From Amoebophrya sp. A120 (taxonomy: Eukaryota; Protista; Dinoflagellata), in contig CAJINV010000026.1 in NCBI GenBank assembly GCA_905178155.1, forward strand, positions 132,814 through 153,455: a stretch of 20,642 bases of DNA. The letters run 5' to 3'. Shown one piece after another: positions 998 through 20,642 of this stretch; the first letter of the stretch is position 1, and each line of letters opens with the position of its first letter. Both the position numbers and the translations under genes were made by a program. The notes beneath the pieces were generated by a model, which was not told where the DNA came from, searched no databases, and saw only the letters and a program-made list of their open reading frames with translations.

Positions 998-3900
998 TTA
1001 CCAGCCAAACTCCCGGTTCTGCGGACCATTTGGGTCGGGCATAAACACCTTCATGACCCCCGTGGGCACGAACCACGTGTCCTTTGGTAGGATGCGGTTT
1101 CCCTGGCACCGACACGAGTGGAGATGCCCGGGGGCCGATATCGATGGAAAAAGCTGTCTTAGTCTACTACTCAAAGAACCTGTGCAAATCCGGCAAGACA
1201 AATTTGCGAAACACGAACACGAGGGAAAGACGTATGAGAGACGACACGACTGTCACTGTCTTGCATCTCCAGCATGACAAAAGCAAAACACTGTCTACTC
1301 CAGGACGAGGGTCTTGCGCATTACAAGTTGAGATTGACCAGAGAATGTTTTCTCTATACGATAGCCGACCGCACGGAAATACTGCGCACGTGGAATCCGC
1401 AGTTGCAATTGTTTCCCGTGATCGTGTATCAAATGCAAATATGTCTGGGTCTGGAAGGAAAAGCAGGATGCATACTTGTAATGCTGCACGTGGATTCTGA
1501 AAAAATCTGTATTGCAGGAGCAGCAAAAGCAGTGCGTTTCTTGCTACACGGGGGGGCATTTCTGATGCAGTATGGGCGTCAGAAAGCCGTCACAATAGCC
1601 GTGATGCTAGAGCATGCATCACAGACATCGCCGGGGATGCAAAATGTGCATGACAAACTTCCCGACCCAGACATATTTGCAGTTGATATCGTGTTATGAT
1701 GCGCTCCATTCGCGTACTTTTCCCACTCCGGGTGCGAAAGCGTCTGGCAATAGAGCGCCATCACCGTGCCCTTGTTGTCCTTCTGTCGCTGCGCCACTGA
1801 ATCAATGTAATTTTGCTTCCGCTCGATTTCCTCCTTGGACAGCTTGAGCTTTTTACCACCGCTATCGAAAGGAAAGACTCCCCCTCCCCATATTGAAAAG
1901 GTATTTTTCCGCAACTTTGTGTTGCTGATTTGAGGTCACAAATCACATTCGTGCTGCAAGAAGACAATGGCAGAAGCTGCCGCCTCATTATGGAAGCCGT
2001 TTGTCATGCTGTTTGGCCTAAAGGGGAGCTGTTTGCCATGCTCGACAACTAGACCCAGGCGCCTGTGCCTAGGCTGGGTATCTGGCCGCAATGCCTTCCT
2101 GCAATACAAAGCGTATTTGTGTACACAAATCCAGCCTCAGAAATTCCGTTTTGATATGGGGAGGGGGGATTTTTCATTTTGATAACCGCGCAGATCGCCT
2201 TTCGCCTCCTCGAGGTCGTCCCAATCTTCATAAGCCGCCCGGTATCAAATGCAGATATGTCTGTTTTACTTTTGTACGGCTACGGCATTACCTGGCTTCC
2301 TTTTTCAGCATGAGAAAAATAAGTAGCGCTTTTGCGCCAAAATGTGGCGAATGGTTTTCACTTCAACTTTTTGCGCCCCACGCGCAAAAGCAAGTGCTTT
2401 GAATCACGAGCGCAATAAGATTCATGTCTCGATATCCGAGGCCCCAAAGACTGTCGCCTAATGAGCAGAAAAAAGCTCGCTTTTGTCTCGCGTATCACGA
2501 CATTATGGCGTGGGACAAATTTCTCCACCAAAATTTGAAAAATCGTTTTCACTTCAACTTTTTGCGCCCGACGCGCAAAACAAAAATCTTTTGAATCACG
2601 AACGGAATCTGATTCAAGTCTCGATACCCGAGGCCCCAAGGACTGCCGCTGAATGAGCAGAAAAAATATTTTTTTTGTCTCGCGTATCACGACGGTATGG
2701 CGGAGGGCAAATTTCTACACCAAAATTTGCAAAGTTGTTTTTAGTTCAACTTTTTGTGCCCCACGCGCAAAAGCAAAATCTTTTGAATCACGAGCGGAGT
2801 CTGATTCTAATCTCGATATCCGAGGCCCCAAGAACTACCGCTTAATGAGCCGAAAAAACCTTTTTTTTGTCTCGCGTATCACGACGGTATGGCGTAAATC
2901 AAATTTCTACGCCAAATTTTGAAATATCGTTTTCACTTCAAGTGTTTGCGCCCCACACGGAAACAAAAAGTCTTTTAAATCACGAGCGGAATCTGACTCA
3001 ATGCTCGATATCGGAGGCCCCAAGGACTGCAGCTTAATGAGCAAAAAAGTCCTCTCTTTTGTCTCGCGTATCACGACGGTATGGCGTAGAGCAAATTTCT
3101 ACACCATAACTTGCAAAGTCGTTTTCACTTCAACTTTTTGCGCCCGACGCGCAAAAAAAATCTTTTGAATCACGAGCGGAATCTGATTCAAGTCTCGTTA
3201 TCCGAGGCCCCAAGGACTGCCGCTCATTGAGCAGAAAAAAGCTCTTTTTTGTCTCGCGTATCGCGACGGTGTGGCGTAGGAAAGATTTCTACGCCAAAAT
3301 TTGAAAAATCGTTCTCACTTCAACTTTTTGCGCCCCACGCGCAAAAGCAAGTGCTTTGAATCACGAGCGCAATAAGATTCATGTCTCGATATCCGAGGCC
3401 CCAAAGACTGTCGCCTAATGAGCAGAAAAAAGCTCGCTTTTGTCTCGCGTATCACGACATTATGGCGTGGGACAAATTTCTCCACCAAAATTTGAAAAAT
3501 CGTTTTCACTTCAACTTTTTGCGCCCGACGCGCAAAACAAAAATCTTTTGAATCACGAACGGAATCTGATTCAAGTCTCGATACCCGAGGCCCCAAGGAC
3601 TGCCGCTGAATGAGCAGAAAAAATATTTTTTTTGTCTCGCGTATCACGACGGTATGGCGGAGGGCAAATTTCTACACCAAAATTTGCAAAGTTGTTTTTA
3701 GTTCAACTTTTTGTGCCCCACGCGCAAAAGCAAAATCTTTTGAATCACGAGCGGAGTCTGATTCTAATCTCGATATCCGAGGCCCCAAGAACTACCGCTT
3801 AATGAGCCGAAAAAACCTTTTTTTTGTCTCGCGTATCACGACGGTATGGCGTAAATCAAATTTCTACGCCAAATTTTGAAATATCGTTTTCACTTCAAGT

Positions 3901-6900
3901 GTTTGCGCCCCACACGGAAACAAAAAGTCTTTTAAATCACGAGCGGAATCTGACTCAATGCTCGATATCGGAGGCCCCAAGGACTGCAGCTTAATGAGCA
4001 AAAAAGTCCTCTCTTTTGTCTCGCGTATCACGACGGTATGGCGTAGAGCAAATTTCTACACCATAACTTGCAAAGTCGTTTTCACTTCAACTTTTTGCGC
4101 CCGACGCGCAAAAAAAATCTTTTGAATCACGAGCGGAATCTGATTCAAGTCTCGTTATCCGAGGCCCCAAGGACTGCCGCTCATTGAGCAGAAAAAAGCT
4201 CTTTTTTGTCTCGCGTATCGCGACGGTGTGGCGTAGGAAAGATTTCTACGCCAAAATTTGAAAAATCGTTCTCACTTCAACTTTTTGCGCCCCACGCGCA
4301 AAAGCAAGTGCTTTGAATCACGAGCGCAATAAGATTCATGTCTCGATATCCGAGGCCCCAAAGACTGTCGCCTAATGAGCAGAAAAAAGCTCGCTTTTGT
4401 CTCGCGTATCACGACATTATGGCGTGGGACAAATTTCTCCACCAAAATTTGAAAAATCGTTTTCACTTCAACTTTTTGCGCCCGACGCGCAAAACAAAAG
4501 TCTTTTGAATCACGAGCGGAATCTGATTCAAGTCTCGATACCCGAGGCCCCAAGGACTGCCGCTGAATGAGCAGAAAAAATATTTTTTTTGTCTCGCGTA
4601 TCACGACGGTATGGCGGAGGGCAAATTTCTACACCAAAATTTGCAAAGTTGTTTTTAGTTCAACTTTTTGTGCCCCACGCGCAAAAGCAAAATCTTTTGA
4701 ATCACGAGCGGAGTCTGATTCTAATCTCGATATCCGAGGCCCCAAGAACTACCGCTTAATGAGCCGAAAAAATCTTTTTTTTGTCTCGCGTATCACGACG
4801 GTATGGCGTAAATCAAATTTCTACGCCAAATTTTGAAATATCGTTTTCACTTCAACTTTTAGCGCCCCACGCGCAAAAAAAAAATCTTTTGAATCACGAG
4901 CGCGATAAGATTCATGTCTCGATACCCGAGGCCCCAAGGCCTGCCGCTTCATGAGGAGAAAAAAGCTTTTTTTTGTCTCGCGTATCGCGACGGTATGGCG
5001 TAGAACGAATTTCTTGCCCAAAGTTTGAAGATCGTTTTCACTTCAACTTTTTGTCACCCACACGCAAAAAAAAAGTCTCTCGAATGACGAGCCAAATCTG
5101 GATCAATGCTTGATATCCGAGGCGCCAGGAAAGCGGTCTCATGAGCAGAAAAATTCCTTGAGGCTTCTCGCGTATCACGGCGGCGTGGCGCAACATAAAT
5201 TCTAATTCCCTCCTACTCCTGCGTTGCATGCATTACAGATCTCGCTGCCTTTCAAATTTCGCATCAGAAATTGAGACCCAGATCGATATTTGCATTGCAT
5301 ACCTCGAGCTCCTGGTTCATTTCTAGCTGCTGCTGCTGGAAGATTCGTACCCCGCACCCGTCATCGACTTGGACTTGCGCATAGGAGTATCTTTGTCCCG
5401 TATCCAGGGAATCCTCTGGCTCGGCGTACCCAATCGAGCCGTCCAAGTCGCCGTGCCCTGACATAATGATTTTCTCGTGGGTCGCGAAAGGGATCTTCTG
5501 AATGCCGCCACGCAGACCCTGGTCTTTCGTGAAGGAGATGATCGTTTTGCCGGGGACTGCACCCTCCGGACCCAAAGGGTACACGCGGCCACCACCTCCG
5601 GGTATCATTCGCGTTTTGTACTGGGCAAGGGCCTCCGCGAGTTTTTCTTTCTGCGGACCAAGGTACCTAGTTGTAAATCACAGAAGCGACTTGAACTTGT
5701 AATGCGTATAATGCGTTGCTCTTGCAAGCCACTGGATTTTGATTTTGATCAGCATTGATGTAAGTATTCTGAGAACAACTGCGCGCATGGTACTAATTCA
5801 TTGACTCATTTATTCCACATGTAGACCTCCACGCAAAGAAGCAAAAGTAGAACCGAAGATGTATAGAGAAAAGGCCTCACCACACGCAGGCCTTTGCCAT
5901 CATGCTCTTCGAGTTGTAAAAGTACTTTATCAATACCCCTTGTCGACACTTGTTATGCCCAATTGTACGAGTTGATTGTAGTCTGCCATGCTCAACCTGC
6001 CTTCCCGCATGTCCAGTATGACATTGCACAACTCCCCCTCCTGTCATTTGTATAGCATGAACGGCATGTGACAAGCATCAGCAAGAAAGCCGGTTTTGCA
6101 TGAGAAATGTACACTGGAGTGTAGTGCAAGTGCTATTTGGGCCGCTACCAGAACTTGTCATGCAAACAGTGCCATAGGGCAACGACTGGAGTCTGGGTTT
6201 TGCATGACAAATGAGGCGGAGGGGGAGTTGCGCACTGTCATATCCAGAGCTGGGTCTTCAAACGGCAGCCCGGCCGCGGTGCCGCCTTCGTTCTCCCAGT
6301 TGGATGCATTGCAAATCTGTCTGGGTCTGGGAACTTCTTGTGATGCAAATTTACAAATTGCGCGGGCGCTGCAATATGCAACCCAGCATGACAAGTTTTT
6401 GCGCTGCTGTGTGTTTCGTTTTTCGCACGACAAACTGCGTGGTTGCATGACAGGCAAGCGGCCCTTTTCCTGCTCATGCATCACAGATTTAAGAGTCACG
6501 CCAGACACACATGACAAACTTGCATTCTTCCAGACCCAGACATATTTGCAATTCATAAGTTGGATGTCATAGCATCTTTCTGCTCGCCCTTGTGGTCAGC
6601 GGCGGTCACGGGCCCGCGTTTTTTCTTTTTTCGGCCCACATTCTTTATCCGGTCCCACATCTTCCCTCCTTTTGATTTCGCATCCTTTTTTTTTCCTCCC
6701 GATTTTTTATTCTCGTCGTGGTCCTTGCTCTTGCTCTTCCCGCGATCCGAGCTTCTGGAACTGCTTTTGCTGCTCCCTCTATTAGAACTCCGGCTGCTGG
6801 TACTCGTTGCTTCAGCTTCGGTATCCCACGAAAAAAGTGTTACAGTTACACATTTGTAGTGAATTCAGCAACACAAATTTCTCTGCATGAGAGAGAAAAC

Positions 6901-9900
6901 TTGTAATGCAGAAATCCTACAGGAAAACACCTATGAAACGAGGATCCGATGCACATCCGGCATGACAGAGCTTGTTTGTCTTGCTTGGCCTGCAACACAA
7001 TGTGTAACTGTAACACTTTTTTCTTGCGATATTCGGCCTCTGGAGCCCCACCCTCATCTCCGCCGGCTTGATCATCTGCGTCGTCTTTGCCGCTACTGGA
7101 AGAACTATTTTTCGTCTTTTTCTCGCTTTTTTTACTACTACTTCCCTTGATCTTGTTAACCAATCCGTCCTTCGCGTCCCTTAACTTTTCTTTTGCGCCT
7201 TTCAACTTTTCTTTCATCACGCTTTTCTTCTCTTTGCTGCTGCTCTTGCTCGTGCTTGTCCCTCTGTTGCTGCTTCTTGTACTGCTCTTGCTGCTAGTAG
7301 ACTGGTCTTCGTTAGTACTATCCTTCGAGCTGCCGCGTCTGCTGCTACCTCTACTGCTGCCTCTGCTGCTACCTCTACTGCTACCTCTACTGCTGCCTCT
7401 ACTGCTTGTTGCAGCTTCGTCTTCATTCTCCTTGTCGCTGCTGCCTCTACTGCTTGTCTTCGAGGAAGACGAGCCTCTCCTCGACGAAGACGAGGAATCT
7501 GCTCTCCTGGATGAAGACGAGGAATCTGCTCTCTTGGATGAAGACGAGGAATCTCTCCTGGATGAAGAGGAGGAGGGCCGCGTGAATGTCTTTTCCGTTC
7601 GTTCGACGTTTTCCTCCAAAAACGCAGGCTGGAGGTCTTCATCTTCCACGAGAGCTACGTCTTCAAGGATTTCATCTACTGCAGCAGGTGGTCCATGATC
7701 TACTTCCTCGTCTGCTTGGTCAGGTCCTCGCTGCTGTCCTAGATTTATTTCTGGCTGGTATTTTTCCGTTTCAACATCTTCCACCAGAAACGACTCTCCT
7801 TGTACAACTTCCTTATCCTTTGTTGAAGATGGCGTAGGATAAAAATCTTTGTCCCCTACTTTCTCTGATACTTCTGCACCAGTATGATCTTCTACCGCCG
7901 CCCCCACGTCGTCTGGTTGGTGTACTTCGGTCCTCTCCCTGGCAGGAACATTTGCATTTGCATGAAGGTGAACATGATCTGTTCCATCGTCGTGCAATAA
8001 ACCATCTTCGTCCACCGTCGTGGTTTGTTTTTCGTTTTCCTCAGCCCGTCGTGAGGGGGAAGAAATTATTCTGTCATCCTCAACCTCCTCCTCAACCTCT
8101 TCATTGAAAACGAAACTGGACTCCGGTAGGGGCTCAGTCGTGTCTACTTCCGGGTCGTCATCTGGCGGAGCAGTACCAGACTCGGTTGTACTAGGATCAT
8201 AACGACCATCGGTTTCTTCTTGTTCTCCACCGTCGTGGTCATATGATCTCCCACGTCGAAACGGTCCCTCGTCATGGTCCTCGTGGTTGTGAAGATGCGC
8301 GTCATCATCTCCATAGAAGTCCTCGTCCTGGTGGTCATCTGCAAGGAAGGAATGATGCGCGCTGTCTCTGACAACATCATTCTCTCCGATTTCGTAGTCA
8401 TGACCGCGTTCTTCATCACCGTCGAGTTCCTCCTCTACTTCTAGCATGCTCTATCAAATGCAAAAATGTCTGGGTCTGGAAACTTGCGATGCTAAAAGTG
8501 AATGGTAGACGGACTGCAGTACGCAGCTATGTATGACAAACTTTTTGGCTCCCATGTCTTACGTATTCCGCATGGCAAACTGCGTTTTTGCATGACAGGT
8601 AAGAGGGCCTTTTCGTGCTTATGCAACGCAGATTCTCGACTCATGCCAGACAAGCATGACAAACTTGCATTCTTCCAGACACAGACATTTTTGCATTTGA
8701 TATGTTCCCGGTTTCGTCAAACGCAAGCGGCTCGTCCTCGTCTTCGCGGAAATATTCCTGTATGAAATGCAAAAGCATCTATACTACGTAGTGATTGCAA
8801 TACAAATTCACTTAGCATGATAAATGAAATCGAGAAGGGTACGCTGTGGGACCTAAAAAGCAACCGCTTCCGCTCCTGTAGCCTCAAAAACCAGCGCGGC
8901 CGCCGGAGAGTACTCCCCTCGTGATTGGCCTTGTAAATGTCACGCGATTTGCATCGTGTGGCGACGCAGTCCGCCCGTGATTGTGCTTGCTTTGAGGAAG
9001 CGTTTCAAAACAACACAAAAAACGACCGAAGTGGCCGAGTCCCGTGCTGTTTGCCGCCGGATTTGGGGGCGCGGCAAACCGGCGCACATTTTGCGCGGCA
9101 GTCCTCTGGCCCAATTTGGACCGCCCCGGGCGACCTTCCCCCGGTCTACCTCGATTTCGGGGGAGGATTCCGCAGAGGATTCCGGAGAGGATTCCAAAAT
9201 CCTCTCCGGAATCCTCTGGCCCAAGTTGAGCCGTGTTTCGCGCCCTTTCCCCGACGGCACGGCCTCGATTTCGGGGGAGGATTCCACAGAGGATTCCGGA
9301 GAGGATTCCAAAATCCTCTCCGGAATCCTCTGGCCCAATTTGGGCCGTCTTCCGCGCCCTTCCCCCGATGGCACTGCCCCGATTTCGGGAGAGGATTCCT
9401 CAGAGGATTCCTCAGAGGATTCCAAAATCCTCTCAGGAATCCTCTGGCCCAATTTGGGCCGTCTTCCGCGCCCTTCCCCCGATGGCACTGCCCCGATTTC
9501 GATCGGGAGAGGATTCCACAGAGGATTCCTCAGAGGATTCCAAAATCCTCCCAGGAATCCTCTGGCCCAATTTGGGCCGTCGGTCTTCCGCGCCCTTCCC
9601 CCGATGGCACGACCTCGGTTTCGGGGGAGGATTCCACAGAGGATTCCGGGGAGGATTCCAAAATCCTCTCCGGAATCCTCTGGCCCAAGTTGAGCCGTCT
9701 TTGGCGCGCGCCCTTTCCCCGACGGCACGACCCCGATTTCGGGGGAGGATTCCGCAGAGGATTCCAAAATCCTCTCCGGAATCCTCTGGCCCAAGTTGAG
9801 CCGTCTTTCGCGCCCGTTCCCCGACGGCACGACCTCGATTTCGGGGGGGGATTCCACAGAGGATTCCGGAGAGGATTCCGAAACCCCCTCCGGAATCCTC

Positions 9901-12900
9901 TGACCGGATTGGCGCCGTCCTTCGCGGTCTTTCCCCGGCGGCACGGCGTCGATTTCGGGAGGGGATTCCGGAGAGGATTCCTCCGGAGCCCTTTCTCCCG
10001 TGGTACGCACTACCTCATCCGGGAGGATTTCCCCGGGGACATGGCGGACCCCCCGAAGCGAGGGCGGACCCCCCGGGGGCGAGGGTGGATCCCCCGGAGA
10101 ACGGGCGGATCCCCGGAAAGCGGGCGGATCCCCCGGAGAACAGGTGAATCCCGCGGGAAGCCGGCGGATCCCCGGGGAACGGGCGGATCCCCGGGAAGCG
10201 GGCGGATCCCCGAGTAGCGGGCGGATCCCCGAGTAGCAGGCGGATCCCCAGGGCGAAGGCGGATCCCCGGGGAGCGGGCGGATCCTCGGGGCGCGGGCGG
10301 ATCCCCGGGGAACGGGCGGATCCCCGGGGAACGGGCGGATCCCCGAGTAACGGGCGGATCCCCTGGGCGAAGGCGGATGGATCCCCTGGGCCAAGGCGGA
10401 TCCCCGGGAAGCGGGCGGATCCTCGGGGGGCGGGCGGATCCCCTGGGGGAAGGCGGATCCCCGGGGAGCGGGCGGATCCCCGGGGAATGGGCGGAGGGAT
10501 TCCCTGCGCGAAGGCGACTCCCCGGGGAGTGGGCGGATCCCCTGCGCGAAGGCGGATCCCCGGGGAATGGGCGGGCTCCTGGGCGAAGGCGGATCCCCGA
10601 GTAACGGGCGGATCCCCTGCGCGAAGGCGGATCCCCGGGGAATGGGCGGGCTCCTGGGCGAAGGCGGATCCCCGAGGAACGGGCGGATCCCCTGGGCGAA
10701 GGCGGATCCCCGGGGAATGGGCGGGCTCCTGGGCGAAGGCGGATCCCCGGGGAACGGGCGGGTCCCCGGGAAGAGGGCGGATCCCCGGGAAGAGGGCGGA
10801 TCCCCGGGGAAGTTGGCGGATCCCCGGGATGAGGGCGGATCCCCGGGGGCGAGGGCGGATCCCCGGGGAACGGGCGGATCCCCCGGTCGAGGGCGGATCC
10901 CCTGGTCGAGGGCGGATCCCCGGGGAGCGGGCGGATCCCCGCGGGCGAGGGCGGATCCCCCGGAGAACGGGCAATCTGTTTCACGGGCGATATACGTGCT
11001 CCACGGTATTTAATTTCCCACAAAATAACAAGCAACCTTCGTAGTTCCGTCGTGTTTCGCGTTTTAGGTCTCAGAGCGTACCGGTCTCATGAAATTTGTC
11101 ATGCTGATTTGCCTTAGCAACGAGATTTGGAATGTATGACTGCGATTTTTACTACGAGTACGATACTTTTGCACAGGATATCCTGCTCGTCCAGCGGCTG
11201 GTCGTGGTAAACGATGTGACTTTGATCTTCTGCATCGTCATCCAGATTCATTTCCATCCCGTCGCCGGGAGCCGGGCTGTTGTACGTACCTGCTTCAACT
11301 CGGTGGTCATCGTCTTCGCGGCCCATATTTTCATCCTCATCGCCGTAGTCTCTGTCGTCATGATGATCTTCTAGGTCCGCATACTCCAGAAACCGCTCGT
11401 CTTCGTCTTCCTCTGTGTTGTCTGCTCTGTACATGATCCTTCGTGCTGGCAGCTCTGGCTGTAGTTCTTGATCTTGATCATCCACCGTCGGTAGTTCCTG
11501 GTCTCCTTCGTCGAAGAATACGTCTTCGTTGATTTCGGGAAAGTTTTCTAGCAAGGCTTGCTCCGGGTGGAAGTCTTCTTCATCTTCATCTTCTCCTGGT
11601 GCATCTACCGCACTACCTTCTTCAAAAAACTCGTCGTCCTTGTTCGGTGCAACTGGGAAGTGGTTCTCCTGCAGTTCGCGGTCGTGGAACTCATCGTCAT
11701 TTTCATCGACGCTGGCCAACATCTTCTCCTGATTTTTCTCACCCTGCTCTGTAATTTTCCTCTGGTCAATCTGTAAAAAATCCTCGCCACTTGGCGACAT
11801 TGTCCCGACTCCAGCCTGCGCCGGAGCAGCTTTATTTCCCATATCGATTTCTTTCTGCACCAGCATCGGATGCACTTCCGGTACCCCGGTGCTGCGCCAG
11901 AGGTGCCTCTCGGTGCCGTCTTTCATTTTTACTACCACCCTCTCCTATCAAATGTAAAAAGTGTCTGGGTCTGGAAGAATGCAACTTGTGATGCTGCGTC
12001 TGCATTATCCAAAAATCTGTATTGCATGAACAGCAAAAGAGGTCTAGTTTTGGCCACGGCGAGAGGGCATTTCTCATGCGGTATAGGCACAAGAAAGCCC
12101 TCACAAGATCTGCGATGCTAGGGCATGCATCGTAGACATCAGGAGTCACGCAAAACGTGCATGACAAACCTTGCATCCTTCCAGACCCGGACATTTTTGC
12201 ATTTGATATCTCCGCGAAGTCTGGGTGGATAGTATCCCTTGAAAAAACTGCTTCACTCTGAGGTGTGATGATTTTGCAAGATCTGCATCACAAGTTTGTT
12301 AATACACATGACAAAGAAAACTTGGCATGCGTGCTTCCTAAAGGAAGAACACACAGCTAGAAATCCAATGTCTTGCATGTGTAGCAACACAAACAAACTT
12401 GCATTCCGTTCTATGCATCACAAGTTTGCAGTGAAGCAGTTTCAGTTTTTTCTTACGATAGATGAGGCCGCTTCGGTAATCCGGATGATCTTCGTCCCAG
12501 AAATCAGGGTGGAGCGCGTATTATGCGTAGCAAAAATGTCTGGGTCTGGGAAGTTGCAACTTGTAATGCTGTCTTTGAATTCCAAAAAAATCTGTATTGC
12601 ATGACCAGCAACGGGGGTCCAGTTTGTCTTACGTGGAAAGGGCATTTGCATTTCTCATGCGGAATGGGCATTAGGAAGCCCTGTAAAGAAAAAGATCTGT
12701 GATGCTAGGTCATGCATTACAGGCATCAACATCATGGATCATACGAGATATGCATGACCAACCTGGCAACTTTCCAGACCTAGACATATTTGCATTTGAT
12801 ACGTATAATTTGCCTGACGCCGCGTGGAGGTTTTCTGCTCCCTCTACTGGTGCATCTACTAGTGCTTCACCGTCGTTATTCGCTTGTTGCAAGAAAGAGC

Positions 12901-14030
12901 TTTGTTGTTCTACTGGCGGTGGTGGTTCTTTTCTTTCAAAAGACGTTGCGCCGTCTACGTGCTTTGAAGATGAAGATGACGACAAAGCCGCCTGCGCCTC
13001 CCTATCGTCGTCCGGTGAGACAAAACCGTTCCCAACACCCAGCCGCTCATCATAGTCATCGCTGACATCGTATCCCAAGAAAAAAGTGTATACAGTTACA
13101 CATTTGTTCGAGTTTCTGCATCACAAATTTTCTCTGTGTGGCAGGCACAACTTGTAATGCAAAGATCATAAGGGAAAACAGAAAGGAAACGAGCCTCCCA
13201 AGCATTTCCTGCATGAGAAAGGTTGTCTCTGTTGCTGGTCTTGCATCATAATGTGTAAGAACTGTAACACTTTTTTCTTGCGATACACCCAGCCGCTCAT
13301 CATAATCATCGCTGACATCGCCCTCCGGTTCTACTACGGAGGAAGATAGGAGGTTTTGATCGGCTTGTGAAGCAGAAGCATAGTCGTCTGGTGATGTCGC
13401 GGCTTGACCTCCGCTACTATTTGTTCCGTGGTCACCGTTTCTTCCCTTCACCGTGTCCAGCTGCGTCCAGAAAAGGAAAAGGAGGAGAAACATCCAGTAA
13501 AAGCCGTTTCGGACAAGCAAGATTGGTTTCAATTGCGATAGGAGGTAATAGTGGTGAAAAACTACCCGGTCGGTTTTTCCTGTTTTCGTTTTTCGCCTCG
13601 CTCGGTTGTGTGCGTAGATTTTGCTGGTGGAGGAAAGAGGTGGTGCTGCAGACTTTTTCAAATTTGCGATCGTCGACAAGGAAATAAATGATTGGCGCTC
13701 GTCTTTTTCGGAATCAGGTGAGGCGGAAGCTGTACTGTCGCTGGACCTGAAACAGGACGCGGACGATGTTGGAAAAAGACTCTGTATGCCGCATGGCTGC
13801 ACTTGTTTTTGTCTTCCCGAGCACCACTTGTGGCCCGTGTATGATCCGGCGTGCTTGGGTGGTGACGTTGACGAAGAAGAGGGTGTCGCGGGAGATGCAG
13901 GTACAACTAACCGAAATTGAATCCGCTCTCCGAATGGTGTTTCTGCAAACGCGGCGGTCGGCTTTCTTGGAGGAACACCTCCGTCGACACCACCTGCACC
14001 ACTAGGCACGGTCGCCATTGCGCTGGCCAT
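998..14030 (-). CDS. Large 15-exon protein of unknown function (~1483 aa). It has a hydrophobic TM/signal-like segment near aa 165-190, long D/E-rich and S/R/K-rich low-complexity regions, and a Cys/His-containing C-terminus.
   Basis: Manual splicing, counting each direct repeat once. Exons: 14030-13286, 13035-12802, 12516-12461, 12227-12209, 11940-11181, 8755-8703, 8446-7032, 6816-6558, 6297-6243, 6011-5937, 5666-5302, 2237-2185, 1857-1689, 1421-1364, 1133-998. Total 4452 nt (divisible by 3), no internal stop, ends TAA. It links ORF-track fragments 13056..14030, 12710..13078, 11114..11938, 6846..8447, 5264..5608, 1579..1914 and 998..1201. Junction peptides read sensibly, e.g. GKLYALHPDFWDEDHPDYRSGLIHPDFAERVVVKMKD, DEQEYFREDEDEPLAFDETGNMLEVEE, NQELEAAYEDWDDLEEAKGDLRGGKKLKLSKEE. 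The start codon is uncertain. Confidence 0.85.
1139..1363. mobile_element. Degenerate TIR element / non-canonical intron
   Basis: Ends TATCG...CGATA with a weak TIR. Exact direct repeat GCCGA at 1134-1138 and 1364-1368. Removal restores the frame (VRS-APGHLH). Confidence 0.8.
1427..1688. mobile_element. TIR element family A / non-canonical intron
   Basis: TATCAAATGCAAATATGTCTGGGTC...GACCCAGACATATTTGCAGTTGATA. Direct repeat TCGTG. Confidence 0.95.
1863..2184. mobile_element. TIR element family C / non-canonical intron
   Basis: TATCGAAAGGAAAGACTCCCCCTCCCCATAT...ATATGGGGAGGGGGGATTTTTCATTTTGATA. Direct repeat ACCGC. Confidence 0.92.
2243..5301. mobile_element. Giant family-A TIR element / intron (3059 bp) containing a satellite array
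   Basis: Left end TATCAAATGCAGATATGTCTG; right end GACCCAGATCGATATTTGCATTGCATA. Flanks CCCGG/CCTCG match 3/5. Removal plus 5 nt keeps the frame (ELE-AAYEDWDD). Confidence 0.8.
2354..5205. repeat. Satellite of ~15 monomers of ~191-192 bp, organised as a 957-bp 5-mer higher-order repeat
   Basis: CACTTCAAC-like anchors at 2359, 2550, 2742, 2934, 3126, 3316 ... 4273 ... 5039. Near-identical ORF translations recur at 2358/3315/4272 and 2653/3610/4567 (period 957). Confidence 0.97.
5667..5936 (-). other. Canonical GT-AG intron (270 nt)
   Basis: Minus strand AAGGG|GTATTG...TTTACAACTAG|GTAC. Splicing gives in-frame SVDKGYLGPQKEKLAEALAQYKTRM and avoids an immediate TGA. Confidence 0.75.
6017..6242. 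mobile_element. TIR element (family C-like) / non-canonical intron
   Basis: TATGACATTGCACAACTCCCCCTCC...GGAGGGGGAGTTGCGCACTGTCATA. Direct repeat TCCAG. Confidence 0.93.
6303..6557. mobile_element. TIR element family A / non-canonical intron
   Basis: GATGCATTGCAAATCTGTCTGGGTCTGG...CCAGACCCAGACATATTTGCAATTCATA. Direct repeat AGTTG. Confidence 0.92.
6822..7031. mobile_element. TIR element family B / non-canonical intron
   Basis: TATCCCACGAAAAAAGTGTTACAGTTACACATT...AATGTGTAACTGTAACACTTTTTTCTTGCGATA. Direct repeat TTCGG. Confidence 0.95.
7330..7575 (-). repeat. Coding tandem repeats, (SSRG)n and SSSSRR(A)D
   Basis: 12-bp units CTACCTCTACTG and ~27-bp units CTGGATGAAGACGAGGAATCTGCTCTC lie inside the 8446-7032 exon. 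Confidence 0.9.
8452..8702. mobile_element. TIR element family A / non-canonical intron
   Basis: TATCAAATGCAAAAATGTCTGGGTCTGGAA...TTCCAGACACAGACATTTTTGCATTTGATA. Flanks TGCTC/TGTTC match 4/5. Confidence 0.95.
9103..9990. repeat. Tandem repeat, ~8 copies of ~106-118 bp, with 12-bp subrepeats and an internal palindrome
   Basis: CCTCTG anchors at 9103, 9213, 9327, 9441, 9559, 9677, 9783, 9897, with GAGGATTCC subunits. Confidence 0.95.
10020..10972. repeat. GC-rich minisatellite, ~20-21-bp unit GGGCGGATCCCCGGGGAAC, roughly 45 copies
   Basis: GGCGGATCCCC recurs continuously across the interval. Confidence 0.95.
11946..12208. mobile_element. TIR element family A / non-canonical intron
   Basis: TATCAAATGTAAAAAGTGTCTGGGTCTGGAAG...CTTCCAGACCCGGACATTTTTGCATTTGATA. 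Direct repeat TCTCC. Confidence 0.95.
12233..12460. mobile_element. TIR element (family B-like) / non-canonical intron
   Basis: TATCCCTTGAAAAAACTGCTTCACT...AGTGAAGCAGTTTCAGTTTTTTCTTACGATA. Flanks GATAG/GATGA match 3/5. Removal gives GLI-HPDFAE. Confidence 0.87.
12522..12801. mobile_element. TIR element family A / non-canonical intron
   Basis: TATGCGTAGCAAAAATGTCTGGGTCTGG...CCAGACCTAGACATATTTGCATTTGATA. Direct repeat CGTAT. Confidence 0.93.
13071..13285. mobile_element. TIR element family B / non-canonical intron, flanked by a 35-bp duplication
   Basis: TATCCCAAGAAAAAAGTGTATACAGTTACACATT...GTAACACTTTTTTCTTGCGATA. 13036-13070 and 13286-13320 are identical at 34/35 positions. Confidence 0.93.
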
Positions 14031-16029
14031 GGCTCGCGGGGTGGGGAGCAGCCCGCGCTCCCACCCGCTTCATGCGTGGTTACCACGGCAAAGCTGCCCT
14101 CATCACGAAGGAGGCATGGTTTTGAAAGGCGGTTCTCTGCGCTCCATCGGTGCGGACCGCAGGGACGGTTGGTCTGTTCGTGGTCCTCGCAAATGAGTGC
14201 CGCTTATTAGCTTTGTGACAACTCCCTCGAAGCGAGACACATACAACAGCAAAACAGGCAAGGCTGCCCCTCAAACTGTACAGATGGGGATCGCGCGTTT
14301 CCTCTCAGGCGCTCGGGTGAGAAAGAGGCCTGTTAAAGCAGGCGCTGGGGCACTGCCGCTGCAACAGAAAGGCAAGAAGCCTCGCCCCGAAGGAAAACAT
14401 CGGCGCGCCAGCCTATCCCCTCGTCCGTTCTCGCACACATCGTCTCACTCCCTCCACTCACTTCGGGCTCGGCTGGCCGTGACGAAAACAATGCCACGAG
14501 CGGGTGGCGCGCGTGCTTCATCGCGCTCCGCAAGAAGTTCTTCTATCTGTACTGGTAAAACGGGCCACTTTATATAGCAGCAATGCATGCTTTTGGCGCC
14601 CGGGCCAATTCTGGCGCGGGCGGCGGCGGGAGAGCTGCGCCATTGATTATTCCACCTCGCCCGGGCAACCCACAAACGTGGGAAGAAAAGCCGGGGCTCG
14701 CGTGCCCCCCCGGCCGCCACCAAACCGCCCGGCGCGGGCCTTCGGGAATGAATAGCGGGGGGGGGGTTCGCCTCGGACGGCCGCCGATTCGCATGGCGCA
14801 GGCCGTTCTCTTTTTAGCGCGCCGGCAGGCCCACGGAGGCCCCCGGCAAACGGGGGCCAAGAATTCGGCGCCGGGGCTAGCCGCGCACCGGCGCGGCCGC
14901 TCGCTGTGCCCGCGCGTTTTCTAGCTCTGCGGCGAAGAATGAAGGGGCGGCGGGACCGTGACGGGGCGGCCCGCTTCGTGTTCGCGCCGTACGCTTCCGC
15001 ACCAGTGCGACCGCTTTCATCCGCTTCCACTTGCCACAAAGGGCGGCCGGTGCTGCGGCAGCTTCAGCGCTTCACTTGCGCGCCTGCGGGCCGGCGCGCT
15101 TCCTTGGGTGGCGTAGGCCGCGCACTTCAAATTCGCGTTTGCCAGAGGACCGCCTCAGACCCGCGCCCGTTTCTGCGCGAGCTGCGCGACTACGGTGCGA
15201 TCCCTGGAAGGGGGCGGCGGCTGAACCTTGTTACGGAAACCCGAGCCGCGCGCCATGATGCTCTTCAACCGGTCTTGTAGTGGATACACCTAATACAGGC
15301 TGGCTTTCGTCCACTGATGTGCTTGGAACTGGATGCACATCTAGATCTAGTGCGGAGGACCCGCATCAAAATCTATTGCTCGTTCACTTAGAGTGCCCTC
15401 CAACTCAATGGCCACTCTTCTCAGTGCTGATTTCCCTAACGCAATTCCTCCGCAGTATATCCTCTTCCCTAATCTTTCAAGACGTAAAATGTAGAACTCT
15501 TCCCCTTCTCTACCCTCTTCCACTCCTGTTAAATCAGGTCTCCACACACGACATTACAGGAATCTTACGCAGGACTCCATCGGAAAATCGCGCTTGGTGC
15601 CGATGTTAAGATTAGAAAAAAATCTGATCTGGGGACGATTGAGAAGACCGAACAGCGCACAAGAATACATGTTGCCAGGAAGCACTTGCACGGTGGCAGC
15701 GAGAGCTTTCATAGTGTACTAGTTGTAAGTATTTTCTGTTCGCGTTCTTTGCCGGAAGTTGCTGTTCGTTTTTGTCGGAAGTTGCTGTATGTACAGTGTT
15801 AATTTCCATCCAACAATATATACGCGTTGACGGTCTTGCTCGTTGAAGTATTCATTGTGCATAGAGAGACAATGATTTTTACATTTAATTTCGAGTAGTA
15901 CGTACGAGATAAATTTTGATTCTGTAAAGAGTTTCTGTAAAAAAAGCTTTTCGTTAAATCTGTAAGCTGTTGTTGTTCTTTTTCATTTTCAGCGCTTTTT
16001 CATTTTCCAACCACCACTTCACTTCCACC

Positions 16030-17613
16030 CTATTCCTTGCCGCTATCCAGTGAAATAAATACATCAGGATCACAAGAAAAGCTGCGTACTTTGTACCACG
16101 CTGATGTTGCTGTTGTACCAATAGGGCATAACAAGTGTGTTGCGTTTTTCTTGTGACTCTGAAGAAATATTTTCATCAGATAAAACATCTCGCCCTGTAA
16201 AGCCGCCACCGCCCTTCGCCGCTCCCTATCAAATGTAAAAATGTCTGGGTCTGGAAGAGTGCGCGATTTGTCATGCAGCTTTTCCATGATCCATGAGGTC
16301 TGGAATGCAGGACCTAGCATGACAGATTCTGTGCGATCTTTCTCATGCCTATTCTGCATGAGAAACTGCCTCCCGACTTGGTTAAAACTGGACGACTTTT
16401 GGTAATCATGCAACACAGATTTTTGCATGCTGCAGATTTAGCATGACAAGTCGCATTCTTCCAGACCCAGACATTCTTACATTTGATACTCCCGGATGGA
16501 TTGCAATTTCACCATCTGTTGCTCCATCGCATCTATCGCCTCCTTCTCGTCCTTATCAAATGCAAAAATGTCTGGGTCTGGATGATTCCGGGATTTGTCA
16601 TGCTAGTCCGGCATGGCTCTGAGCTCTGTATTGCGTGGCCGCAAAGGGCTTCTCTTGCCTGTCATGCAGAAACGCAGTTTCTCATGCGGAGTACGCAACT
16701 CTGCACCACGGAAAAACTTGTCATGCTTGGCAGTGCATTACAGTATGCGCATTTTTCCCTGGCTTGCATCACAAGTTTCCAGACCCAGACATTTTTGCAT
16801 TTGATAGTCCTTGGCCAACTGCTGGTCGAGATTGTAGTTCAAGTGGACTTCGTTCAGTATCTCCGCTGCCTTCAGCGGATTGTTTTCGACGTTGGTGGCA
16901 ATACTGTATCAAGGTCGAGACATTTCCTATCCCAGTATCGCTGTTCACGTACATGCCTTTGTAGCCCAACATGTGACCAGCAGCCAAGGACTATGGCTTA
17001 GCTATTTCGTAGCGAAATGCGGATGTTGGTGCACCGTGAGAAGATGGCGTCTTCCGCGGATTATTTTGCGTGTGTTTCATGATCACATTCCGGAAGCGCC
17101 AACTCACTTTGTTTTTGCGGAAGCAAAAAGTATACAAATTTGTCAATGGAAATGGCTGCCGCACAGACAGAAGGAAAGAGCTCTTTTCGCGAACAACCGC
17201 ATGCCACGAATGCTGGGATCGGACTATTTTCAAGCTGACACCTTTTCCTGCACACGCATCGAAACCTGCACGTTGTCCTCCGCGACGGGGAGCATGTTAC
17301 CCCGGAGCTTCGCCCGTCGCTCTGCGCGGCGCCTTGTGTTCTCCATGCGCTCTGTTGATCAATAGTTCGCTTGATTCATACATAACTTCAACTATCTCGA
17401 ATCGAGCTCATAATTATGGTCGACTATTCATTCAACATCATATTTATTCTTCAACCGCCGCATCAACATTAATAAATTTCTTCGCACAAAAAAAAAGTAA
17501 GTACTTTTTTTATCCTTCTCGGACTCCTCTCGTTTCTGTGTCGTTTTGGCGCCGAACTTGGCTGTGGTAGAAGAGCTGCCTGTCGAACTCGATCCGATTT
17601 TTGGGGGGAGCAT
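16030..17613 (-). CDS. Small charged, probably coiled-coil protein (~140 aa) of unknown function; may extend further 5'
   Basis: Exons 17613-17505, 17351-17241, 16901-16807, 16548-16489, 16221-16183 and 16038-16030 total 423 nt in frame: MLPPKIGSSSTGSSSTTAKFGAKTTQKREESEKDKKKRMENTRRRAERRAKLRGNMLPVAEDNVQVSMRVQEKVATNVENNPLKAAEILNEVHLNYNLDQQLAKDEKEAIDAMEQQMVKLQSIRERRRAVAALQGEMFKE*. The first and last junctions are less certain than the middle ones. Confidence 0.7.
16044..16182. mobile_element. Probable short decayed TIR element / intron
   Basis: TATCCAGTGAAATAAATACATCAGGATCACAAGAAAA resembles the reverse complement of the right end, TATCTGATGAAAATATTTCTTCAGAGTCACAAGAAAA. There is no intact direct repeat. 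Element plus 5 nt is 144 nt (frame-neutral), and read-through is also open. Confidence 0.55.
16227..16488. mobile_element. TIR element family A / non-canonical intron
   Basis: TATCAAATGTAAAAATGTCTGGGTCTGGAAGA...TCTTCCAGACCCAGACATTCTTACATTTGATA. Direct repeat CTCCC. Confidence 0.95.
16554..16806. mobile_element. TIR element family A / non-canonical intron
   Basis: TATCAAATGCAAAAATGTCTGGGTCTGGA...TCCAGACCCAGACATTTTTGCATTTGATA, a perfect 29-bp TIR. Direct repeat GTCCT. Confidence 0.96.
16907..17240. mobile_element. Decayed TIR element / intron
   Basis: TATCAAGGTCGAGACATTTCCTATCCCAGTAT resembles the reverse complement of the right end, TGTCAGCTTGAAAATAGTCCGATCCCAGCAT. The direct repeat is lost, but removal plus 5 nt gives in-frame VQEK-(V/I)ATNVENN. 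Confidence 0.65.
17352..17504 (-). other. Canonical GT-AG intron (153 nt), AT-rich
   Basis: Minus strand AAAAAAA|GTACTTAC...ATCAACAG|AGCGCATG. Splicing gives in-frame EKDKKKRMENT. Confidence 0.65.
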
Positions 17614-19239
17614 GTAGCGTCCCCGGCGAATAATGCAGAGACAAGATGTGGGACAAGAACCCAATTCAAACCTGGAGTCTTCGACTTAGAGTCTGTAACT
17701 GTACGAACATGCACTGAAGTCGTTGAATGACACATGATTGGCTGCTACATTGCAGCTGTTGTCGTTCTATCTCGTTTTGAAATTCTTTCTGCAACGAGCC
17801 CGGTTGTCAGCCACGGCGCACCGTTGGAAATACTTACGATACAAATGGCGCATGTGGCTTTTGCTTTCTTTCATGCAGACAATATACGGCTCGCAGTATA
17901 ATCGCGATGATCGGTTGTTGACCCATGAATGTTCGGAGATATCGACGTCCGGTAGCGCCTTGCTGCTGGAACTGAGTATCAGACTTCAAAATACCGCCAT
18001 TTTCGCATATTCTAAGCTGGAACAATCAAGGTTCTCAATACCGCAAAACGTATTATGCCTTGTTTCGGGGCGGCAAGACAGTGCATAATCATGACAAGTT
18101 TCAAAGAGATAAACTCAACAATGGCGAACGGAATTCGTACCAAGTGACCAACTTTGCCTTTCTGTGAATATGCGGGGGCTGGACCCGGTATTTGTGCTTG
18201 ATAACCAAGTTGAAGCTCGTGTCTTGATCTGTTGTTGAAAGTTGAAAAGTTCGGTTGAAAAATTATTTATTACACAGTTCCATAAATAGCACGGGCCGAC
18301 GGATAGTCATCTTTCAGGATCGAGTCAATCATTATCATCTTTTCTCCCTCCATATCCATTCTCGTAGCACAGGATCACGAAACAACAAAATCACAATCAG
18401 ACCAAGAAGCAGTAGTTAGAATACAACTGAGCGACGAGACGGTGCTGACAGTGGAGATCGGGGACTGCAGAACCTCTTGCTCTTTTTCCTGCTCTCCGCG
18501 GAAAAGGTCCCACACTGTGGTCCCGTTCCATTTCGGGACAGGCGGCAGATGATGTGGTCGCTTGTCCATGTTCCCTCCTTCTCAAGCAATGAACAACCAC
18601 AACGCGCTGCTATTGATTACGACGAAAAAAAATGGAAAACGCTACGTATCTATTAGCGCCATATTCTGTTCATACAGTTTGGTAAAAGAATTCAGGTAGA
18701 CTGCGTCACCAACGCGAAAAGGAAAAGGTAAGGGGCGGCTTTTATTTTCGCTTCACATATTGCAAAATAAAAGTGATCTCGACATACATAGCGCGAAAAC
18801 GACAGCACGACGGGCGAGAGTAGACCGACGACAACTCAAACGGATACTCGATACGATTCGAAGATAAGTGCGCCATCTCTTCGTAGCAACGCACGATCAG
18901 ACGCGCCCGTGACACCGAGGGCCAGTACGTCGACACCAAGGCCCGAAAAAGAACAAACGGAATCCGCGTCGAAAAGACTACTTTAATGAAACTAAGTAAA
19001 AATCAATAGGAATAAACAACGAGCTCGACGACCACGACTTCGTGTAACGATCACGACGAACTTCTACTCTCAACCACTGCTCCCACGGGAAATCGTGTTG
19101 GCTCTTAAGCATGCGCGTGCAACCATCACTACTGCCAAAAACTCCGCGACTTATTATCCAAACCCTCCATCGTCGGACTTTATTGGAGCGGTGACGGGCG
19201 GCATTGGCATTGCGGCGTCGAGCATCGTTATACACTCCG

Positions 19240-20642
19240 CGGCTTTCGCTGCCTCGGCTTTCGCTGCTTTCTTGGGTCGTGTCCAGTGGAGACTGGACAG
19301 CCCCAAACCCGGGCGCCCGTGTGTGCGTCTCAGCGGGGCGACCTGCTTCGGCTTTCGCTGCTCTCTTGGGTCGTGTCCAGCGGAGACTGGACAACCCCAA
19401 GCCCGGGCATCTTTGTGCGCGTCTCAACGGGGCGAACTGCCTCGGCTTTCGCTGCTTTCTTGGGTCGTGTCCAGTGGAGACGGGACAACCCCAAACCCGG
19501 GCGCCCGTGTCTGTGCGCGCCTCAGCGGGGCGAACTGCCTCGGCCTTCCTTCGCTGCTCTCTTGGGTCGTGTCCAACGGAGACTGGACAACCCCAAGCCC
19601 GGGCATCCTTGTGCGCGTCTCAACGGGCGGGGCGAACTGCCTCGGCTTTCGCTGCTTTCTTAGGTCGTGCCCAGTGGAGACTGGACAACCCGAAACCCGG
19701 GCACCCGTGTGCGCGTCTCAGCGGGGCGAACTGCCTCGGCTTTCGCTGCTCTCCTGGGCCGTGTCCAACGGAGACCGGACAACCCCAAGCCCGGGCATCC
19801 TTCTGCGCGTCTCAACGGGCGGGGCGAACTGCCTCGGCCTTCGCTGCTTTCTTGGGTCGTGCCCAGTGGAGACTGGACAGCCCCAAACCCGGGCGCCCTT
19901 GTGGGTGCGCGTCTCAGCGGGGCGAACTGCCTCGGCTTTCGCTGCTCTCTTGGGTCGTGTCCAGCGGAGACTGGACAACCCCACGCGGGCACTCTTGTGC
20001 GCGTCTCAACGGGGCGAACTGCCTTGGCTTTCGCTGCTAGCTTTCTCGGGTCGTGTCCACCGGAGACTGGACAGCCCCAAACCCGGGCGCCCTTGTGCGC
20101 GTCGCAACGGGGCGAACTGCCTCGGCTTTCGCTGCTCTCTTGGGTCGTGGGTGCCCAGTGGAGACCGGACAACCCCAAACCCGGGCGCCCCTGTGCGCGG
20201 CTCAGCGAGCGGGGCGAACTGCCTCGGCGTCCGCTGCTCTCTTGGGTCGTGGGTGTCCAGCGGAGACTGGACAACCCCAAGCCCGGGCATCCTCGTGCGC
20301 GTCTCAACGGGGCGAACTTCCTCGGCTTTCGCTGCTCTCTTGGGTCGTGGGTGTCCTGTGGAGACTGGACAGCCCCAAACCCGGGCGCCCGTGTGCGCGT
20401 CTCAACGGGGCGAACTGCCTCGGCTTTCGCTGCTCTCTTGGGTCGTGTCCAGCGGAGACCGTACAACCCCAAGCCCGGGCATCCTTGTGCGCGTCTCAGC
20501 GGGGCGAACTGCCTCGGCTTTCGCTGCTTTCTTGGGTCGTGTCCAGCGTAGACTGGACAACCCCAAGCCCGGGCGTCCTTGTTCGCGTCTCAACGGGGCG
20601 AACTGCCTCGGCTTTCGCTGCTTTCTTGGGTCGTGTCCAGTG
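19240..20642. repeat. GC-rich satellite with a ~94-100-bp monomer, ~15 copies, truncated by the window end
   Basis: CCTCGGCTTTCGCTGCTYTCTTGGGTCGTGTCCAGYGGAGACTGGACARCCCCAARCCCGGGC...GGGGCGAACTG recurs from ~19252 to the end. Confidence 0.97.

Follow-up and report, generated by a model that had tools for sequence, protein, structure and literature searches.

The family-B inverted-repeat element that interrupts a minus-strand gene of Amoebophrya sp. A120 is probably a transposon-derived non-canonical intron, with both of its cuts likely placed at fixed distances from its paired inverted ends, a long flanking repeat ignored, and a 10-residue tandem repeat left in the protein. The locus lies in a stretch of 20,642 nucleotides of contig CAJINV010000026.1 (hereafter the window, whose own positions are used throughout). 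A preliminary description had proposed it as a natural test of the excision rule, in which excision measured from the terminal inverted repeats (TIRs) would leave two copies of a peptide unit and excision guided by the direct repeats would leave one. The test works, and it comes out for TIR-measured excision: a 220-nt joint is found in contig sets X3 to X6, and a count of the copies left across it indicates that the unit SDDYDERLGV would stand twice. The locus is made up as follows.

13286..13320, minus strand: upstream repeat copy (5′ in the transcript), entirely kept in spliced contigs
13071..13285, minus strand: family-B inverted-repeat element, 215 nt, non-coding, with ends TATC...GATA, absent from spliced contigs
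13066..13070, minus strand: first 5 nt of the downstream copy, lost with the element
13036..13065, minus strand: other 30 nt of the downstream copy, kept, yielding the second 10-residue unit

The flanking duplication is as it had been described: positions 13036–13070 and 13286–13320 are identical at 34 of 35 letters and flush with the 215-nt element, and the computed probability that such a match would arise by chance at a given place is about 1e-19. The single mismatch (G at 13055, A at 13305) exchanges the Asp codons GAC and GAT on the minus strand and is indeed synonymous. The repeat codes for DVSDDYDERLG plus the first base of a V; the full duplication measures 35 nt, and the 5-mers flush with the element agree at 3 of 5 positions. 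The element itself (13071–13285) is predicted to fold as a closed stem (z of −4.5 for 13020–13335), and the predicted pairing of its ends would set this stem flush with the element borders. Loss of 220 nt (element plus 5) or of 250 nt (element plus 35) preserves the reading frame, as originally claimed, and loss of the element alone (215 nt) breaks it.

Assembly error had been named at the outset as a possible source of the duplication, and the contigs point elsewhere, since the repeat is seen in both DNA-type and RNA-type contigs. In the DNA-type run X1, which is possibly the sample from which the window was assembled, one contig (12773–13100) holds the left repeat and 30 nt of the element, one letter short of our 31-letter bridging rule, and a second (13206–13700) holds 80 nt of the element with the right repeat and beyond, each with 0 other letters. 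Both variants of the repeat copy are present in the likely-RNA contigs, again with 0 other letters. As far as our tests reach, the 35-bp duplication is no assembly artefact.

The joint connects 13064 to 13285, a skip of 220 nt with 3 letters of ambiguity, and is present in all four likely-RNA contig sets (X3, X4, X5 and X6, from one sample), each time within one contig with 0 other letters. Eleven runs were listed and eight compared; the RNA status of X3–X6 is a tool's guess, and no listed run is on record as RNA. We treat these sets as RNA on the ground that they precisely lack four elements while 2068 aligned nt carry no other letter, and the coordinates of the X3 contig agree with our reconstruction to the base (2082 at 11181). 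No 250-nt skip occurs among the joints listed for X3 (all joints) and for X4–X6 (all but one), an absence that concerns the main form, as contigs drop rare variants. When four modelled products were compared with the contig path, removal of the element with the downstream 5 nt was the one that matched, and removal of the upstream 5-mer was 2 letters off. The site has a polarity, in that the upstream copy survives intact and the 5 nt that follow the element are lost; a shift of the cut at 13066–13070 by up to 2 nt upstream or 1 nt downstream gives the same product, and a 3-nt match overlaps the joint. Because both outcomes are in frame, decay cannot have selected the 220-nt product. Among raw RNA runs, X9, X10 and X11 contributed 11, 2 and 1 partial reads, respectively, each confined to element ends and none of them spanning the joint; X3 has zero depth at 14319–14400, which we did not use as evidence.

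It could be argued that X3–X6 are DNA of an element-free allele, in which a 30-nt tandem repeat predates the insertion, and that they carry no information on splicing. The RNA status of the runs is after all a guess, and an ACA match at a distance of 30 nt (13035–13037 and 13065–13067) is the usual mark of slippage duplication. Such an allele, however, would have to lack four elements precisely and show 0 other letters in the 2068 aligned nt, the same runs contain other copies of these element families, and in the left 5-mer two positions must have turned into exactly the letters found downstream; we consider this reading very improbable. All four elements in the contig-matched stretch lose the element plus 5 nt, and the host gene is laid out as follows.

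998..14268, minus strand: host gene, matched by spliced contig from 14268 to 11181, the rest inferred
12522..12801, minus strand: family-A element with perfect 5-nt flanks; a skip of 285 in the same contigs equals the 280-nt element plus 5
12233..12460, minus strand: element with mismatched 5-mers (3/5), upstream copy kept and downstream 5 nt lost, the second informative case
12209..12227, minus strand: micro-exon of 19 nt between two elements, kept in the X3, X4 and X5 contigs
11946..12208, minus strand: family-A element with perfect 5-nt flanks, lost with 5 nt
6822..7031, minus strand: another family-B copy within this gene, serving as a control, since its 5-nt duplication is perfect and of the ordinary kind

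For the element at 12233–12460, too, removal with the downstream 5 nt is the only modelled product that equals the contig path. The contigs join 11945 to 12461 through a 14-letter insert, and this insert plus one 5-mer is the micro-exon 12209–12227.

Homology-directed excision by the direct repeats would have used the long repeat and left one copy. That most elements carry perfect 5-nt repeats (141 of the 174 found outside the window) and that the 250-nt product is in frame would suit such a mechanism, yet the 220-nt joint stands in four of four likely-RNA contig sets and the 250-nt skip in none of the listed joints, and the 5-mers used agree at just 3 of 5 positions; we find it hardly credible. 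The joints might also be reverse-transcriptase jumps over a repeat-flanked hairpin (falsitrons), with no splicing involved. A hairpin with direct repeats at its base and non-canonical apparent joints, as seen here, is the anatomy of known artefacts in the part of the falsitron report consulted (PMC8240250), and our data, if RNA, are of cDNA type. Unlike the joints of falsitrons, however, this one bypasses the long repeat, and the element must be removed for the reading frame, which on retention stops at codon 324 of at least 1451; moreover, four elements are absent from one contig in which the micro-exon is kept. A perfect match of 20 nt is on offer at the 250-nt skip and one of 3 nt at the 220-nt skip, which argues against repeat guidance and reverse-transcriptase jumps alike: a jump would have to take the 3-nt match, and a falsitron joint is expected at the flanking direct repeats, where the 20-nt match has gone unused. 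We give the artefact explanation next to no weight.

The cut, then, likely follows the element ends and not the long repeat, a ruler reading whose support comes from one sample with guessed RNA status and from two informative joints that both retain a 3-nt match. This match is the starting point for another reading, that the stem sets the position and a short (2–3 nt) match between exon end and intron end is read as well. In its favour are the 3-nt ambiguity at both informative joints, a chance of about 5% by hand calculation for a 3-nt match of unrelated flanks at the focal site, and the mismatches of the window's four imperfect cases, seven of seven of which lie at positions 1–3 of the 5-mer, away from the cut. 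In the loci surveyed elsewhere, where there is no RNA and the strand was inferred from codon use, mismatches at inferred positions 1–2 and 4–5 instead number 10 vs 8 for confidently oriented elements and 15 vs 12 for all 29 elements; an earlier, noisier orientation had placed 20 of 27 single mismatches at positions 1–3. With mismatches at positions 4–5 about as common as at 1–2, a need for a match at 4–5 is unsupported, and we hold the additional reading of a local match to be unlikely.

Unrelated GT-AG sites had been raised as another way in which the cDNA might be joined, and the joint gives no sign of them: its four possible registers read AT..GT, TA..TG, GT..AT and TG..GA, none of them GT-AG, nor does it combine a GT or GC donor with an AG acceptor as a canonical U2 intron would. 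Around the element, 18 in-frame GT/GC-AG pairs are present and none is used, and the sole 220-nt GC-AG pair (13281–13062) would yield a joint other than the one observed. Counted from the element's first T, the focal joint permits a 5′ cut from −2 to +1 and the element at 12233–12460 one from −3 to 0; the register common to both, if the rule is shared, is −2 to 0. At register −1, the four measured introns read N-TATC, with N being G, G, C and A. If this register is used, every intron begins N-T-A-T-C; it would share the U at +2 with GU donors and resemble the U12 donor. The consensus of the latter is RTATCCTT, and U12 introns also have a U12 branch site. In the portions of PMC7789003 consulted, minor snRNAs are reported absent, and Table S4 gives A120 intron starts that are mostly N-T; these starts agree with register −1 and are not counted as evidence, since aligner placement inside the repeat is ambiguous.

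We propose that the stem of paired inverted ends acts as a ruler for the cuts, such that the 5′ cut would fall immediately before the first T of the element or up to 2 nt further upstream, and the 3′ cut 5 to 3 nt past the element end. With an ordinary 5-nt target duplication, the same cuts would restore the gene exactly. The machinery is likely the splicing machinery, and both a modified spliceosome and another enzyme are conceivable. In its general form, the proposal is of a splicing route that needs no splice-site letters, with a 5-nt-staggered cut measured from the base of the terminal stem and mirroring the stagger of a transposase, by which even multi-kilobase, satellite-packed insertions are cleanly removed and faulty ones become in-frame peptide repeats; we judge this wider claim about as likely to hold as to fail.

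Application of the +5 rule at the elements, together with one GT-AG intron (5667–5936), gives an inferred gene model with a 1493-codon frame from 14030. The X3 contig measures 5827 nt vs 5503 nt for the gene model to the window start, and the 3′ part of the model is provisional. The window holds 16 inverted-repeat elements (called by script and by eye), 14 of which lie between 774 and 13285, and 13 of these fall within one inferred minus-strand frame. Compared with offsets of 0, +3, +4 and +6 and with retention, +5 gives the longest frame for 11 of 13 elements tested; of the other two, the first is located beyond the stop, and for the second the comparison was confounded by an overlooked element. 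The host protein is acidic and of low complexity; no relatives were found among longer or similar-length proteins or among 1.84 billion representatives, and Pfam returned sub-threshold low-complexity matches only. Rfam returned 0 matches. The inferred canonical intron at 5667–5936 has a 5′ end that reads GTATTGATAAAG and resembles the element ends, and on this likeness of letters it may be a decayed element.

Two elements in the window are far larger than the focal one. That at 8761–11180 (2420 nt) has the usual ends and a perfect 5-nt duplication and holds GC-rich satellites of 114 nt and 19 nt; it is likely spliced as one intron, because the X3 contig departs from the window sequence exactly at 11181 and the +5 loss preserves the frame. 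That at 2243–5301 (3059 nt) contains a 192-nt satellite with a five-unit (957-nt) higher-order period, and its 5-mers agree at 3 of 5 positions, with the frame kept on +5 removal; given RNA, it would be a third informative case. The element at 8447–8707 has a 4/5 duplication with the mismatch at position 3. At 16227–16806, two family-A elements with perfect 5-nt flanks lie in an apparent second minus-strand gene, in which +5 removal opens a frame across both, and a GC-rich satellite of 94–102-nt units (19185–20642) runs off the window end.

Long flank duplications are rare. In the window, 12 of the 16 elements have perfect 5-nt duplications, one agrees at 4/5 and three at 3/5, and a long duplication is present at the focal element only. 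A scan for family-A ends returned at least 170 stretches, the 80 with a listed origin coming from one assembly. Of the 170 fetched loci, 135 yielded calls, 174 distinct elements in all, a sample biased to family A and to well-kept ends. Their 5-nt duplications are perfect in 141 cases and agree at 4/5 in 27, at 3 positions in 2, at 2 in 2 and at 0 in 2. No duplication of at least 8 nt at 80% identity was found among these 174, of which 164 were flanked by 40 nt or more on each side, which sets 1 of 16 in the window beside 0 of 174 elsewhere. The suggestion that the locus would show how aberrant insertions create peptide repeats thus gains no support as a statement about a frequent source. Of 81 cases in the surveyed loci, the frame stays open across the junction in 50 at +5, 49 at +2, 50 at +8 and 34–37 at out-of-phase offsets, frame tests in which +5 is not separable from +2 or +8.

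The focal element has the features of a MITE, being short (215 nt), non-coding, TIR-bounded and of a kind with many copies and a fixed 5-nt target-site duplication, to which the focal copy is the exception. Its family is repeated: besides the copy at 6822–7031, L031 and L032 of the surveyed loci carry copies 90% and 81% identical over the full length, and the differences to L031 are scattered along the element. Two surveyed elements (L053:217–478 and L080:445–710) have intact ends, no flank duplication (0/5) and no long repeat, and may have come about through recombination of two insertions or through deletion. Two viral-contig matches to a family-B end were dismissed as chance, as they lie in a phage-like gene and the second end is absent, and the family-A pattern had no match in viral contigs.

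The 35-nt duplication would have arisen at or after insertion. The simplest origin is that one end joined 30 nt off the normal site, perhaps aided by the ACA match, and we see roughly an even chance of it. Recombination between two same-family insertions 30 nt apart is a tentative alternative, less likely than not to be correct in our estimate; it would give exactly 5 + 30, and the single mismatch might be accounted for as well. We regard as improbable a 30-nt tandem duplication that predates the insertion, with two exact substitutions afterwards. Searches for protein relatives found no pre-insertion or orthologous allele. The survival of the duplication would be owed to the length of 30, a multiple of 3, and to the low complexity of the region. 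Rare long duplications among many short ones are also described for the HERV-K HML-2 proviruses, for which the part of PMC5488345 consulted discusses recombination of two insertions as a source of pseudo-duplications; HML-2 is retroviral and, unlike the focal element, is not spliced from coding sequence.

Judged from their anatomy, the elements agree with the Amoebophrya A120-type introners described by Farhat et al. (2021, PMC7789003). As far as the consulted portions of that paper go, these are non-canonical repeated introns of about 240 nt, whose inverted repeats read TAT, seven variable bases, then AAA, and which occur together with canonical introns in the same genes. Direct repeats are 5 bp in an example and 3–5 nt in general (3–8 surveyed), overlapping the exon–intron borders; the splice position relative to the hairpin is called variable and the border unknown, since each joint is ambiguous within the flanking repeat, and the authors did not find a U1 snRNA. 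The focal element shares the non-GT-AG joint in likely-RNA contigs, both ends of TAT plus 7 variable bases plus at least 3 A, and membership of a repeated family. It differs from the introners as presented in those portions by the 35-nt repeat and by a joint that fixes the length (+5), the polarity and the −2..0 register.

Several other systems offer comparisons, each taken from partial texts. Nonconventional introns of Euglena, of suspected MITE origin and with no GT-AG, are cut 3 nt from the paired terminal motifs on the donor side and 5–6 nt on the acceptor side, a spacer rule shown by knock-in (Nomura et al. 2025, PMC12501133). Cuts at a set spacer from paired ends and the absence of GT-AG are common to both cases, whereas the lineage is another and the rule is tested here by natural variants and there by knock-in; the Euglena signature N3CDG...CH'GN5-6|R is absent in all four registers, where positions 4–6 read GCA, CGC, TCG and ATC. 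The introners of Polarella, Symbiodinium and Micromonas (10.1101/2020.10.14.339549, PMC11282704, PMC12130899) are TIR-bounded elements that turn into introns and have target duplications of fixed length, the gene being restored by loss of one copy; they carry or recruit near-canonical GT/GC/GA + AG, whereas here the boundary letters are free. In the published literature, apart from subscription papers and figures S19–S23 of PMC7789003, and as far as the consulted portions extend, we found no account of such a polarity, nor of long duplications flanking these introns.

This is a known kind of intron, in which a rare variant flank makes the border question testable and likely answers the first half of it. 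The locus would illustrate how a faulty insertion can turn into a peptide repeat, a route that is rare by our survey. As a method, existing data on elements with differing 5-mers can allow single-base placement of the cut across the whole genome. The focal locus favours a ruler set by the element ends and argues that the joints are no reverse-transcriptase artefacts, and the parallel with the Euglena spacer rule suggests that the same solution arose twice.
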